DNA from: a virus
Taxonomy: Duplodnaviria; Caudoviricetes
Strand: one strand, 5' to 3'
IMG/VR virus record: IMGVR_UViG_3300027804_000136
Coordinates: 1 to 34,270 of that record
DNA: 34,270 bases
Below are positions 17,200-31,427 of the stretch, one piece after another; position 1 is the first letter of the stretch, and every line of letters begins with the position of its first letter. A model generated the notes under the pieces. It was not told the DNA's origin. It did no database searches and was given only the letters and a program-made list of their open reading frames with translations. Both the position numbers and the translations under genes were made by a program.

Positions 17200-17724
17200 T
17201 TACTTTTCTTTTAATTCATGATCAAATAGACGTAATGCTATCTTATCAGTACCAAAAGTTTCTAATTGATCAACTAAGGTTTGTACTTTACCCATCTCCT
17301 CTTGTTGTTCATTTAAGAATTTAATAGCAAGTTGATAAAGCAAATGATTACCTTGTTTTAAGGCTTGAACTGCTAAATCATTACATTGCTTAGTAACCAT
17401 TACTTCATGATCAAATGACTTTCTTATGATGTCAGGAAGACCTGCAAATGATTGAGGTGGTTCTTTTAATGAAGGTACTTTAGGCATAACGCCCATATCT
17501 AACAAGAAAGTCTTAGCCCAACCTGCATGAACCATTTCTCCATCAGCATCTGTCTGCCAAACTTTATGAGCATGAATATACCCATTATCATTTAACCATA
17601 AAGACATTGCGTGGTAAAGTCTACTAGAATACTCTTCTTGTTCTATTCTGTAGTTTAAAATATCAATACACTCTTTTGTTGCAAAAGGGTTTTTTGATAC
17701 ATTTGTAAAAGCTGGTAATGCCAT
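17200..17724 (-). CDS. Ferritin (non-haem FtnA-like)
   Basis: LN.RIEQEEYSSRLY.AMS.W, EMVHA, HEVMVT, FLNEQQEE ferroxidase-type four-helix bundle motifs. Confidence 0.85.
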   Translation of the reverse strand: MALPAFTNVSKNPFATKECIDILNYRIEQEEYSSRLYHAMSLWLNDNGYIHAHKVWQTDADGEMVHAGWAKTFLLDMGVMPKVPSLKEPPQSFAGLPDIIRKSFDHEVMVTKQCNDLAVQALKQGNHLLYQLAIKFLNEQQEEMGKVQTLVDQLETFGTDKIALRLFDHELKEK

Positions 17725-25554: not shown

Positions 25555-25610
25555 TGTTAGGGGGTAAAACCCCAACCTAGCATCTGCCTATTCAGTGCAT
25601 TCAGCGTGAA

Positions 25611-25691
25611 TTTGCATAAAGTTGTAATATAGAATAAATGTAAGCTCAATAAAATGTTAAGTAAACAACAGCTATTACAATTTAATGCAAT
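25611..25691 (+). ncRNA. Degenerate twister-derived stem (P2/P5 shell, no core)
   Basis: TGCA..AAAGTTGTAATA-[43 nt]-TATTACAATTT.ATGCA. Confidence 0.45.
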
Positions 25692-26111
25692 TTAAACCAG
25701 GTAAACGTGAGCTTCTTGTTAAGCTGCCTGGAATATGAGTTATAACCATTTGGGCGTCGTAATTGACTTAAATATAGCAGAAGTATTGTAGACCGTTTGC
25801 ACTTAATGATGCTAAATGCTTGGTAGTATTGGGTTTGAGAAGATACACTCCTCTCACCCAAACATTACCCTATTATATTCAAATGGTCCAATTTGGGTAT
25901 TCTTAATATATTATGGCCAATAGTAAGCATAAACAAGTAAGAGACAATAAGTTATACAAACAATAGTGACAACTGTATAACCTCTGTTGAGTATTGGGTT
26001 TAAATCCAAAAACTTGTTAATTAATAGTTGATACTAATAGATATAAGCCTGTCTATTTATCCTGGTTAGAGCTAATGTAGGTAAAACAACTACAATAAAG
26101 GATTAGTATTA

Positions 26112-26250
26112 ATTCCAATGCACAAAGTTGTAATACTAATAATTTCTGCTTCAAGAGCAGTTTTGTATTAGCAATAATACTTGTTGACAGGAGCTTTGTA
26201 GGCATACAAGGAAACAAAAACAACAGTATTACAACTGAGTGCAAAGGAAT
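26112..26250 (+). ncRNA. Twister-derived shell (P1/P2/P5 retained, P4/L4 absent) with an 87-nt insert
   Basis: ATTCC-AA-TGCAC..AGTTGTAATACT / AGTATTACAACT-GA-GTGCA-AA-GGAAT; 17 nt identical to the 3' side of the 26525 twister. Confidence 0.55.
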
Positions 26251-26524
26251 ATTTATGTTGAATAGTTCAACTATATATTTGCTAAATATACAAGTAAATA
26301 CGAATTAACCAATGCTAGGTATACCTAGATTCTCCTTTAGCAAGAGATATTGTTAGTATATTAACAAAGAATTGCAGTGGCTTGACAACCATAATATGTA
26401 AAGTTGCGGTCTTATGAAAACACAACAACATCTATTAGCAGGATGAACCATTAGTGGTGCAAAGCTTGGGGAGTCCTAATCCTCATTAATGGGCATACTA
26501 GAAATAGTATTGCCCTAAATACAT

Positions 26525-26671
26525 TGGGTTAATGCACCATTTCTACTTCCCAAGGGTAGACAGTTGTAATATAGTTCAGCATTGCTGAGAACACCATGAT
26601 TAGTATTAAATTACGTCCGTGGAGGTCATAGGTTCAAGTCCTATTATTACAACTGAGTGCAGAGGGATAAT
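26525..26671 (+). ncRNA. Twister ribozyme (P1-type) with a tRNA-like cloverleaf forming P5
   Basis: UAA-UGCA-CC...UCUAC-UUCCCAAGG-GUAGA-P5-AG-UGCA-GA-GGG; pseudoknots CC/GG and CCC/GGG; P1 is weak. Confidence 0.8.
26565..26652 (+). tRNA. tRNA-like element with an oversized (19-nt) anticodon loop; isotype undetermined
   Basis: Acceptor TGTAATA/TATTACA, D stem GTTC/GAAC, CCATG/CGTGG stem, AGGTC variable loop, ATAGG-TTCAAGT-CCTAT T arm. Confidence 0.65.
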
Positions 26672-26888
26672 TACCTACAGATTATATAAGTGTAGGCACT
26701 AGCATAAGGTGATAACAATGTCCAATGAAAAAAGATGGAAGACCTCAAACACATTTAATGTGGAGCTAATAGAACTGCTTGTTGATGACCGTGACTAGTC
26801 GGGCTCATTGGGAAAATTTAAATTTACAATAAATAAATTTGTATGGGACATCCATATACTAGTCTATCTAGTCACTGGCTATACAAAC

Positions 26889-26962
26889 AGTCATATAGCT
26901 TAATGGTAAAGCTCTAACTCGGGTTAGGATGATGCGTGGTTCAAATCCTGCTATGACTGCAA
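26889..26962 (+). tRNA. tRNA-like element with a shortened anticodon loop (pseudo-tRNA)
   Basis: AGTCATA/TATGACT acceptor, TAGCTTAATGGTAAAGC D arm, CTAAC-TCGG-GTTAG arm, GG-TTCAAAT-CC T loop with a bulged stem. Confidence 0.65.
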
Positions 26963-26966
26963 ATTA

Positions 26967-27002
26967 AAGGTGTAATCTACTACCTAAGAGTGTAGATAAA
27001 AT
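26967..27002 (+). promoter_or_regulatory. Repeated leader motif / H-type pseudoknot, copy 1
   Basis: AGGTG/TACCT and ATCTAC/GTAGAT pairings; 20/21 identical to 27649-27669. Confidence 0.55.
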
Positions 27003-27648: not shown

Positions 27649-27686
27649 AAGGTGTAATTTACTACCTAAATAAATGTAAATAAAAT
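27649..27686 (+). promoter_or_regulatory. Repeated leader motif / H-type pseudoknot, copy 2
   Basis: AGGTG/TACCT and ATTTAC/GTAAAT pairings, compensatory relative to copy 1. Confidence 0.55.
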
Positions 27687-28301: not shown

Positions 28302-28397
28302 ATGAAAAACGTAGACTATTATGAAAACCTGTATTATCAATTAATACAAAGATTGCTTGCAGAACAAGCAGTATTACATACATTATTAACTAATTAA
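28302..28397 (+). CDS. 31-aa peptide (not in ORF track)
   Basis: MKNVDYYENLYYQLIQRLLAEQAVLHTLLTN*; same leader as the 28074 gene. Confidence 0.5.
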   Translation: MKNVDYYENLYYQLIQRLLAEQAVLHTLLTN

Positions 28398-29392: not shown

Positions 29393-29851
29393 ATGACATC
29401 AACAGTAAAATTAACAGTAAATCCAGCTAATGGTCAAATCTTCACAGCTAATGAAAATTTAGGTAAAGATGGTAAAGTATATGGTTTCTTACGTTTTGAA
29501 CAAGAAATATTAAATTTTAGTTCATCAGTAATAAACGTTAAAACATTATCTGCATTAAAATCAATATCTTTAGAAGCTTATGAAAAAGCTCAAAAATCCT
29601 TAATTGAAGGGATGGAAATTGGTGGTAAAATTATTATCACTGAAAGTTTAACAGAAGGTATTGGATTTAAAGTTAAACGTGCAGGTGGTGATGAAAATTC
29701 TCCAGTATGTACATTTAATGGTAAACCAATTTACCGTAAAACTGAATACAGTGATGTAGAAGGTGAAACACACAGTTTAATTGCTCACACAAATGGTGAA
29801 GAAATTAAAGCATACAATGCAATGAAAGTTAGTGCAAAAGCGCTTAACTAA
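29393..29851 (+). CDS. Conserved phage hypothetical protein (beta-rich)
   Basis: YG..R.EQ, GKI...ESL, K.AG....VCT..G.PIYRKT.Y motifs; highly expressed codon style. Confidence 0.75.
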   Translation: MTSTVKLTVNPANGQIFTANENLGKDGKVYGFLRFEQEILNFSSSVINVKTLSALKSISLEAYEKAQKSLIEGMEIGGKIIITESLTEGIGFKVKRAGGDENSPVCTFNGKPIYRKTEYSDVEGETHSLIAHTNGEEIKAYNAMKVSAKALN

Positions 29852-29864
29852 TAACTAATAAATT

Positions 29865-29891
29865 AAGGGTAGCTGTAAAAGGCTACCTTTT
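29865..29891 (+). terminator. Terminator-like hairpin overlapping twister P1
   Basis: GGTAGC-TGTAAAAG-GCTACC-TTTT. Confidence 0.6.
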
Positions 29892-29998
29892 ACTAATGCA
29901 TCACAACTTGTTTTCAAAGGACAAGCAGTTAGGTTTGGTTTCCATTTTATTCATTATTTGATTATTAATAAAATTGACTGAATGCAGATGAGTAAAAG
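29887..29998 (+). ncRNA. Twister ribozyme (P1-type)
   Basis: P1 CUUUUAC/GUAAAAG, UAA, P2 UGCA/UGCA, P4 CUUGU/ACAAG, L4 UUUCAAAGG, P5 CAGUUA/UGACUG, GA-UGA; pseudoknot UCA/UGA covaries with CCC/GGG of the other copy. Confidence 0.8.
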
Positions 29999-30085
29999 TA
30001 TGTTAGTTTAAATGGTAAAACAATATAATAATTTAGTAGGTTTTTTTATTATAAGATTTTAGGTTCGACTCCTAAACATACTTCA
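29997..30085 (+). tRNA. tRNA-like element with an AT-rich extended arm replacing the anticodon arm
   Basis: AGTATGT/ACATACT acceptor, TAGTTTAAATGGTAAAAC D arm, TATAATAA/TTATTATA stem with a 14-nt loop, TTAGG-TTCGACT-CCTAA T arm. Confidence 0.65.
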
Positions 30086-30120
30086 ATTAATTAATTATTA
30101 ACAATTTAAAACAAATAAAG

Positions 30121-30318
30121 ATGAATCCAAAATCATGCGTTAAATGCTGTAGATCAAACTATATGCATAGTATAAAATTTAGTAAATCAAGATGTAGTCA
30201 AGATATTTGTATAGAATGTAGTAATAATACTATTAAAATTAAAGAAAAATCTGGGCTTAGTTTTTCTAGCTCACATTTAATAAATGGCGTAAGACAACAT
30301 ATAACAATATCAATTTAA
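30121..30318 (+). CDS. Small Zn-ribbon protein
   Basis: CVKC...CIEC motif pair. Confidence 0.55.
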   Translation: MNPKSCVKCCRSNYMHSIKFSKSRCSQDICIECSNNTIKIKEKSGLSFSSSHLINGVRQHITISI

Positions 30319-30322
30319 AATT

Positions 30323-30559
30323 ATGACACTAATACACGAATTACAGCAAATGCTTTGGGTTACAACTCCTCATGGAGATGGCATAGCTTTGTTTATAATG
30401 GATTATGGTATTCATAATAATACAATATGGGTTGTAAGCCTTGAATCTGATGGTTCTATTAAACATTATGATAGTAATCAAATAAAACTATGTTTTAATT
30501 ATACAATAGATTTTAATAAAAATAAACTAAATAATGATGACACTGATAAAAGAAATTAA
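30323..30559 (+). CDS. Conserved phage hypothetical protein
   Basis: WV.TPHGDG.A.F..DYG...N..WVV motif. Confidence 0.65.
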   Translation: MTLIHELQQMLWVTTPHGDGIALFIMDYGIHNNTIWVVSLESDGSIKHYDSNQIKLCFNYTIDFNKNKLNNDDTDKRN

Positions 30560-31427
30560 CAGAAACTCTATGATAATAAGGCCTAGTGGTAGAAGCACAG
30601 ACTTTATTTCACCAAGCTTTGGTTATGGTTGTTTATATAATTGTAGCTATTGTTATATGAAAAGACATAAACCTCAAGGTTTAGATATTGCAAAGAATAC
30701 TATGAATATATTAACTGAAATTAATAATCATTGTATGTTTGCTGAAGTAGATAAGCCTAATCAAACTCATAATAACTATACAACGTATGATATATCTTGT
30801 AATGAAGACTTTGCATTGCATGCTAAATATCATGAATGGGAAACAATATTTGATTTCTTTAAGAATCATCCTGTAGCAATGGGTTCATTTGCAACTAAAT
30901 ATGTTAATGTGGACTTAATAAACTATAATCCTGAAGATAAAATTAGAATAAGGTTTAGTTTAATGCCACAGAATATATCTGATGAGTTAGAACCTAATAC
31001 ATCTAAAATAATTGATAGGATTAAAGCTATTGATGCATTTATAGATGCTGGTTATGAAGTTCATATAAACTTTAGTCCAGTTGTTGTTTATGATAATTGG
31101 TTAAAAGATTATGAATATTTATTTCAAATGGTTGATAATTATGTAGATTATCAAAATGAAGTTAAGTGTGAAGTTATATTCCTTACACATAATGAAAATA
31201 AACATAATTATAACTTAACAAATAATATAACAGGAGAGTCTTTATTATGGAATACAGATATTCAAGAAAATAAGATATCACAATATGGTGGTAAGAATAT
31301 TAGGTATAAACATAATCTTAAAGCTGAATACATTAAACAATGGATTAATTTACACAATAGAATAATAAATTGGAATAAAATTAGGTATTGTTTTACTTTA
31401 TTATTACCTTTACTTATAATATTATAA
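30534..31427 (+). CDS. Spore photoproduct lyase-family radical SAM protein
   Basis: GCLYNCSYCY (CxxxCxxC), SFATK, RIRFSLMP, GYEVHINFSPV motifs. Confidence 0.85.
   Translation: MMTLIKEINRNSMIIRPSGRSTDFISPSFGYGCLYNCSYCYMKRHKPQGLDIAKNTMNILTEINNHCMFAEVDKPNQTHNNYTTYDISCNEDFALHAKYHEWETIFDFFKNHPVAMGSFATKYVNVDLINYNPEDKIRIRFSLMPQNISDELEPNTSKIIDRIKAIDAFIDAGYEVHINFSPVVVYDNWLKDYEYLFQMVDNYVDYQNEVKCEVIFLTHNENKHNYNLTNNITGESLLWNTDIQENKISQYGGKNIRYKHNLKAEYIKQWINLHNRIINWNKIRYCFTLLLPLLIIL

Follow-up and report, generated by a model that had tools for sequence, protein, structure and literature searches.

The presence in a phage genome of a twister ribozyme motif, whose last bases are also the first bases of a tRNA-like RNA, raises two questions: whether the ribozyme is real and active, and whether the tRNA-like RNA takes part in its job or simply lies beside it. 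The window (the whole stretch of DNA analyzed, 34,270 nucleotides in length) covers a 34-kb part of a crAss-like phage genome, in which the terminase, portal and major head protein were identified among the genes; its capsid matches the Pfam Crass_capsid family (E 1.6e-134) and displays approximately 40% identity to gut crAss-like capsids. The minus strand carries the structural genes; the twister and tRNA-like RNA lie on the plus strand, among small open reading frames. The nearest of these upstream encodes a protein of 152 residues for which protein family searches found no match, and those located downstream begin at 30121-30534. The parts of the locus are:

29393..29851, plus strand: 152-residue open reading frame upstream of the twister, with a 75% identical relative in locus L001
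29865..29890, plus strand: P0 hairpin of 9-10 bp, then a U-rich tail (fold z -4.0, equaled by 0 of 200 shuffles; pairing 0.95-1.0 in context)
29887..29893, plus strand: P1 5' strand, pairing with 29992-29998 (inner ~4 bp predicted in context)
29894..29896, plus strand: 5' side of L1, comprising U-1, A1 (general acid) and A2, with roles as described in PMC11662667 and PMC5408937
29894/29895, plus strand: predicted cut site, U-A (U29894, A29895 and A29896 present)
29897-29900 with 29983-29986, plus strand: P2, UGCA/UGCA
29901-29902 with 29919-29920, plus strand: pseudoknot T2, 2 bp, a C-G pair plus a U-G wobble
29907-29911 with 29921-29925, plus strand: P4, 5 bp, enclosing L4
29912-29920, plus strand: L4, 9 nt, carrying the 5' side of T1 (29914-29916) and the 3' side of T2 (29919-29920)
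29914-29916 with 29989-29991, plus strand: pseudoknot T1, 3 bp (UCA/UGA), joining L4 to the 3' side of L1
29926-29930 with 29976-29980, plus strand: P5 stem, closing a 45-nt A/U-rich variable loop
29987-29988, plus strand: general-base G29987, then A29988 (GA)
29992..29998, plus strand: P1 3' strand, its last 2 nt within the tRNA-like RNA
29997..30083, plus strand: tRNA-like cloverleaf (Rfam tRNA 37.8 bits, cut-off 29; also called by ARAGORN)

The twister class is described as comprising stems P1, P2 and P4, two pseudoknots and a U-A cut site (PMC5408937). At the level of sequence, a type-P1 twister fold with P0 and P5 was confirmed at 29887-29998, where P1, P2 and P4 stand in type-P1 order and every sequence and structure feature of the class is present. 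P1, the UAA, P2, P4, L4, the GA and T1 were all found where a preliminary description had placed them; P5, the second pseudoknot T2 and the upstream P0 hairpin are additions to it. The bases of this copy presumably map one by one onto those of solved twisters. The loop of P5 itself folds no better than shuffles. The hairpin at 29865-29890, which has 29887-29890 in common with the P1 5' strand, occupies the position of the upstream hairpin described as P0 (PMC11662667). Its identification as an intrinsic terminator was considered and rejected: the tail has four U, and no plus-strand terminator is listed there, so the hairpin was treated as P0.

Additional twister and tRNA-like elements are found elsewhere in the window:

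25609..25693, plus strand: second degenerate shell, a P2/P5-like hairpin only (family model 15.0 bits)
26108..26256, plus strand: degenerate twister shell, with P2 and P5 kept and P4/L4 lost (family model 21.4 bits)
26522..26674, plus strand: sister twister copy, predicted cut 26530/26531 (family model 86.6 bits)
26565-26652, plus strand: tRNA-like RNA in the sister copy, its acceptor stem being the twister P5 stem (Rfam tRNA)
26889..26960, plus strand: third tRNA-like RNA, with a 4-nt loop for the anticodon loop (Rfam 45.1 bits; ARAGORN)

The two shells, together with the copies at 26525 and 29887, form a four-member series in one genome; in an RNA-library contig from a relative, loop 26135-26230 is replaced by 93 other letters.

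The preliminary description had proposed a search with twister covariance models, and Rfam twister models gave no match to either window copy (0 of 2), nor to any of two further sets of loci (0 of 20 and 0 of 13); an Rfam scan of the window returned three tRNA-like RNAs and no twister. The models likely miss these elements because of the long P5 loop. A family pattern designed on the two window copies matches the window at those same two sites (26530 and 29894), versus 0 matches in 100 shuffles, and it matches at least 120 viral loci, with approximately 280 estimated. Among the matches listed, 125 (including the window and L001) were examined, of which 116 close into the full fold and 107 are unique. 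T1 is fully Watson-Crick in 104 of those 107 listed elements, versus 73% after partner shuffling; the general-base G is present in the same number; and the P1 run, in unrelated flanks, averages 2.93 bp versus 1.35 with shuffled partners (largest of 2000 shuffles, 1.75). Five compensated forms of T1 and two of P2 occur in the family; the two of P2 (4 and 2 cases) and one of those of T1 (6 cases) come from a looser scan, in which 69 of 120 loci (64 unique) displayed the full fold under a parse that required P2 to pair.

Covariation was assessed in an alignment of 40 rows, corresponding to 44 members with 20-62 nt loops minus four of the window's own clade. Across the core of that alignment 93.9% of cells are paired and two-sided changes occur in 17 of 28 pairs; none of 500 shuffles reached as high, and slid controls paired 31-44%. 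Since shared ancestry by itself can lift an alignment above its shuffles, this result leans on the slid control and on the variety of pair types. Covariation was seen in P1, P2, P4, P5 and T1, and T2 is 100% paired with no two-sided change, its G side having been fixed by the search pattern. A model built from the 40 rows, without the window's clade, scored this copy at 69.1 bits and the 26525 copy at 86.6 bits and also found the two shells, a score that is not fully independent because the seed pattern came from the window. The family covariation and the model score of 69.1 bits lend good support to two claims of the preliminary description, that the element is a twister and that its structure is under selection. 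Relative to the 26525 copy, pairing is kept, as had been stated, while four of five P4 pairs and two of three T1 pairs are altered on both sides; of the pseudoknots said to be compensatory, T1 is compensated, but T2 displays only a one-sided change (C-G to U-G).

Similar to the type-P1 twister of Rfam (RF03160), the subfamily possesses P1, P2, P4, two pseudoknots, the U-A site, the acid A, the base G and optional P0 and P5; it differs in lacking P3, in a T2 of CC/GG or UC/GG, in escaping the Rfam models, and in a P5 whose stem is conserved in sequence and whose loop is hypervariable (22-172 nt, 90 clusters among the 107 listed; P5 length 36-178 nt, median 75). Natural twisters that accept large P5 inserts and are missed by catalogue models number in the hundreds in this family. 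A crAss-type capsid gene was found in four of five carriers checked, and five larger genomes hold one or two twister copies each. In 185,579 prokaryote genomes the pattern produced 115 matches, of which 100 were tested and nine are real, all of them in metagenome-assembled or small contigs where named; the subfamily thus occurs almost only in phage contigs. In an annotated phage collection, matches to this copy and to the 26525 core stayed at chance level, and hence no cultured carrier was found. The 45 nt preceding the predicted cut fold with z < -2 in 29% of 106 elements, versus 9-14% further upstream.

Self-cleavage of the 29887-29998 twister is predicted with high confidence from its sequence. 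In assays of approximately 1950 natural twisters, P1 was described as dispensable and wobbles in the 2-bp pseudoknot as tolerated, A1, A2 and the general-base G as essential or nearly so, and P5-bearing twisters as all active, while P0-bearing ones cleaved less (mean fraction 0.40 versus 0.85) (PMC11662667).

The tRNA-like RNA contains an acceptor stem of 7 bp, plus A29996-U30083, a 4-bp D arm with G18G19, and a 5-bp T arm with a canonical 7-nt loop. In place of the 5-bp stem, 7-nt loop and stable anticodon by which a tRNA is recognized, it carries an 8-bp stem and a 14-nt loop, and the anticodon arm is abnormal in each of the window's three tRNA-like RNAs. The one at 29997-30083 folds weakly relative to shuffles (z -0.6); CCA is absent from the DNA (30084-30086 being CAA) and could be added by the host. 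ARAGORN reports a tRNA-Thr, but a functional tRNA-Thr was rejected on account of the 14-nt loop and a drifting 'anticodon', the call changing from Thr to Ile in locus L140. Across 29866-30090, five near-identical copies (the window, L001, L138, L140 and L149) differ at nine positions: T-loop 57, 59 and 60, D-loop 20 and the middle base of the mechanical 'anticodon' within the tRNA-like RNA, three in the P5 loop, and one in P0 (29881), where U-G becomes U-A in two of the five copies and pairing is kept. None falls in the 67-nt twister core or in the tRNA stems. Small as these numbers are, they follow the pattern predicted for an RNA in which the elbow is important and decoding is not. RNase P is described as measuring from the elbow along the stack of T arm and acceptor stem, and as cutting non-tRNA mimics (PMC4919913); the A-U pair at -1/73 of the tRNA-like RNA could shift its position.

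The P1 3' strand overlaps the cloverleaf at 29997, as first described, by 2 nt, and the perfect 7-bp P1 of that description exists on paper. Such a helix forms only in isolation, where predicted probabilities for 29887-29998 alone are 0.91-1.0; once P0 is added, with the tRNA not yet made, the outer three pairs fall to 0.02, 0.17 and 0.48, and in the full transcript to 0.00-0.13, with the acceptor at 0.94-0.98; a separate calculation with P0 and the acceptor stem present gave 0.00, 0.01 and 0.15. In context, then, a P1 of about 4 bp is predicted, its outer pairs lost to P0 and the acceptor stem, and this state (P0, 4-bp P1 and 8-bp acceptor) is favored by 13.7 kcal/mol in a model that leaves pseudoknots outside. 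Ribozyme and cloverleaf are accordingly predicted to coexist rather than to exclude one another, so that the fusion would not be a switch in which one fold must be undone for the other. The overlap of P1 and acceptor is found in this clade only, one of the six abutting lineages compared.

The reading preferred here, to which roughly an even chance is assigned, is that the twister cuts itself, that host RNase P cuts the tRNA mimic, and that the pair thereby punctuates a long phage transcript. The twister would cleave the plus-strand transcript at 29894/29895, leaving the upstream mRNA for the 152-residue protein with a terminal P0 hairpin and a 2',3'-cyclic phosphate, and giving a 5'-OH to the RNA downstream. 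Once the 3' strand of the tRNA-like RNA had been made, its acceptor stem would take A29996-G29998 from P1, and a 4-bp P1, of a kind tolerated by twisters, would remain between P0 and the acceptor helix. RNase P, reading the stack of T arm and acceptor and ignoring the anticodon, would then cut at 29996/29997 and release the remaining 102 nt of the twister, P5 loop included, and host 3' trimming would separate the mimic from the downstream genes. The locus therefore predicts two exact ends, 29895 with a 5'-OH and 29997 with a 5'-phosphate, for which one 235-nt transcript suffices, as well as a strand swap among P1, P0 and the acceptor stem. Unlikely in its entirety is a more elaborate proposal: that the element is a two-ended excision device, with a ribozyme-made 5' end and an RNase P-made 3' end, yielding a 102-nt small RNA with swappable P5 cargo plus a tRNA-shaped RNA, that this coupling was built repeatedly in crAss-like phages, both after the twister and inside P5, and that it is the 5'-side counterpart of theta ribozymes.

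A possible though somewhat doubtful alternative is that an active twister merely splits the transcript, and that the tRNA-like RNA is a neighbor brought in by deletions in a packed RNA island, without part in the twister's job. Contact with tRNA is indeed rare in the family: a T arm lies near five of 107 unique elements (an unbiased set, among the matches listed), and 47 of those 107 instead have an A-rich ATG start at most 200 nt downstream. As most members lack a nearby tRNA, the family can do its job without one; and the confinement of the P1/acceptor overlap to this clade further favors an incidental neighbor. Furthermore, in four of the five genomes under comparison (L124 lying within G010), tRNAs and twisters sit together in one island of a few kb, and compaction of that island could account for part of the adjacency.

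The close abutment, however, recurs. A directed viral scan produced 11 matches, five of them a family twister with a complete or partial tRNA behind it and six attributable to chance, and a metagenome scan produced 20, seven with a twister and 13 without the twister 5' half, adding one lineage; L141 is the window's own record, L139 and L144 repeat L125 and L126, and L152 (a tRNA with no twister) was left out of the count. The gap from T1 to the first tRNA base, for which 2-14 nt was allowed, is 5 nt in this clade and 6, 6, 5, 3 and 11 nt in the others, such that a tRNA or tRNA-like RNA begins 3-6 nt after T1 in five lineages and 11 nt after it in a sixth. A wider control gap of 15-45 nt (a 31-nt interval) gave 15 matches, including two twisters, with no tRNA at any match. 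Because L125 and L148 carry related tRNA-like RNAs, the independent origins may number four or five, and in two abutting cases (L128 and L131) the twister 5' half is degenerate. Also counting against an incidental neighbor are tRNA-like RNAs fused inside P5, with P5 as the acceptor stem, in the window, L123 and L124 (two of three scan matches). The preliminary description had tied both window twisters to tRNA mimics in two geometries; both geometries do recur in other phages, but as a minority feature, the tie to tRNA being rare but recurrent, in a few percent of the family.

Several of these loci display further peculiarities. The twister-abutting tRNA at L128 622-696 carries a TTA (ochre-reading) anticodon, in a record with no crAss capsid match; L129 421-697 contains a twister with a long P3-position insert that includes a tRNA T-arm motif, and immediately after this twister stands a tRNA-Trp whose acceptor stem is weak; and a pistol ribozyme (Rfam 57.7 bits) lies at L124 215-275, minus strand, approximately 250 nt downstream of the twister with a tRNA-like RNA in P5.

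RNA-library contigs bear both on the preferred punctuation reading and on a further alternative. Five runs, all with a small share of matching sequence, were searched as assembled contigs that carry neither ends nor strand and may be DNA. In one of the five, a 172-nt contig (X2) covers 29907-30078 at depth 5 with three differences and spans the twister-tRNA junction, and uncut molecules, or DNA, therefore exist at that junction; the contig is compatible with an uncut 5'-OH precursor and speaks slightly against rapid cleavage by RNase P. The other four runs did not cover 29890-30080 and no piece among those listed spans 29894/29895, although gaps between contigs prove nothing, and pieces from X1 and X3 that both end at 29812, 80 nt from the predicted cut, were given no weight. 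Such a contig would also be expected if the product were a stable RNA of about 190 nt (29895-30083), with a protective 5'-OH made by the twister and RNase P slow or absent, serving as a tRNA-shaped decoy for host defense proteins that cut or sense tRNAs. This is judged improbable, notwithstanding a conserved elbow, a free anticodon loop and the abnormal anticodon arms of all three window tRNA-like RNAs: the contigs themselves may be DNA, a decoy aimed at anticodon nucleases would presumably have retained an anticodon-like loop, and some abutting partners (L128 and L129) are ordinary-looking tRNAs.

Very unlikely is a scaffold that has been kept but does not cut here, misfolded by P0 and the acceptor stem together with an additional pair, U29894-A29991 (predicted p 0.92), that competes with T1. 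P0 lowers cleavage on average (PMC11662667), degenerate shells lie in the same window, and in this copy T1, with two A-U pairs, is weak, T2 contains a wobble and the long P5 extension of the family has been lost; the pairs of T1 and P4, however, have not eroded but were exchanged with full compensation, the catalytic bases are intact, and the five near-identical copies display no change in the core. Scarcely credible, finally, is circularization by RtcB of a 3.4-kb RNA, from a 5'-OH at 26531 to a cyclic phosphate at 29894: the end chemistry of twisters fits that enzyme, but RtcB or an RNA ligase was found in none of five related genomes searched (a Bacteroides thetaiotaomicron control gave a positive match), and in three of these genomes only a single full twister is present. 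The same verdict applies to mimicry by P5 stems of type VI-B CRISPR repeats, 36-nt hairpins with GUUG/CAAC ends (10.1101/092577) and a U run; GUUG at the start and CAAC at the end are seen in 84 of the 107 listed stems, 81 of them 32-33 nt past the cut, but only three of the 84 are of repeat-like length (34-38 nt), a U run occurs in 16, and this copy lacks those ends.

The twister variant is real and probably active, and its link to tRNA processing is a minority feature that can be tested. The use of tRNAs as processing marks is familiar from the tRNA punctuation of mitochondrial transcripts. RNase P cuts a number of tRNA mimics, including tmRNA, 4.5S RNA and the ends of MALAT1 and Men-beta (PMC4919913), in which, as proposed here, a stack of T arm and acceptor, a conserved elbow and a dispensable anticodon serve as a processing mark; the present case differs in its phage setting and in its pairing with a self-cleaving ribozyme, and cleavage of it by RNase P is inferred. 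The closest precedent within phages is provided by theta ribozymes, HDV-like elements of Bacteroidota gut phages that are proposed to trim the 3' trailer of tRNAs (PMC10879173), and which likewise place a self-cleaving ribozyme in cis against a phage tRNA with a proposed role in processing. The word 'twister' occurs 0 times in that paper, and no HDV-like Rfam match was found in 29800-30150. In contrast to theta ribozymes, the twister lies 5' of the tRNA, whose normal anticodon loop is lacking, and cuts approximately 100-200 nt upstream of its first base, so that it cannot make the mature tRNA end. If the preferred reading is correct, ribozyme cleavage would be linked to host tRNA processing in an arrangement so far known, through theta ribozymes, for the 3' side only. 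Twisters near phage genes were suggested earlier to split polycistronic RNA, and the role of phage-associated twister and hammerhead ribozymes is acknowledged as an open question (PMC6765202). A literature search, mainly of open-access papers, identified no paper on twisters abutting phage tRNAs or on this subfamily, some members of which may appear in published twister lists.

Additional observations were made along the window and the family. The distance of 32-33 nt from the cut to the P5 stem resembles the placement of type VI-B repeat ends after a 30-nt spacer. A ferritin-like gene lies at 17200-17724, between the portal and scaffold genes, and a spore-photoproduct-lyase-like radical SAM gene at 30534-31427, downstream of the element. 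A 21-nt intergenic repeat is present at 26967-26987 and 27649-27669, and a 13-nt A/T-rich repeat is found 5' of small open reading frames at 28395, 29371 and 30099; both are possibly phage promoter or translation-start signals.
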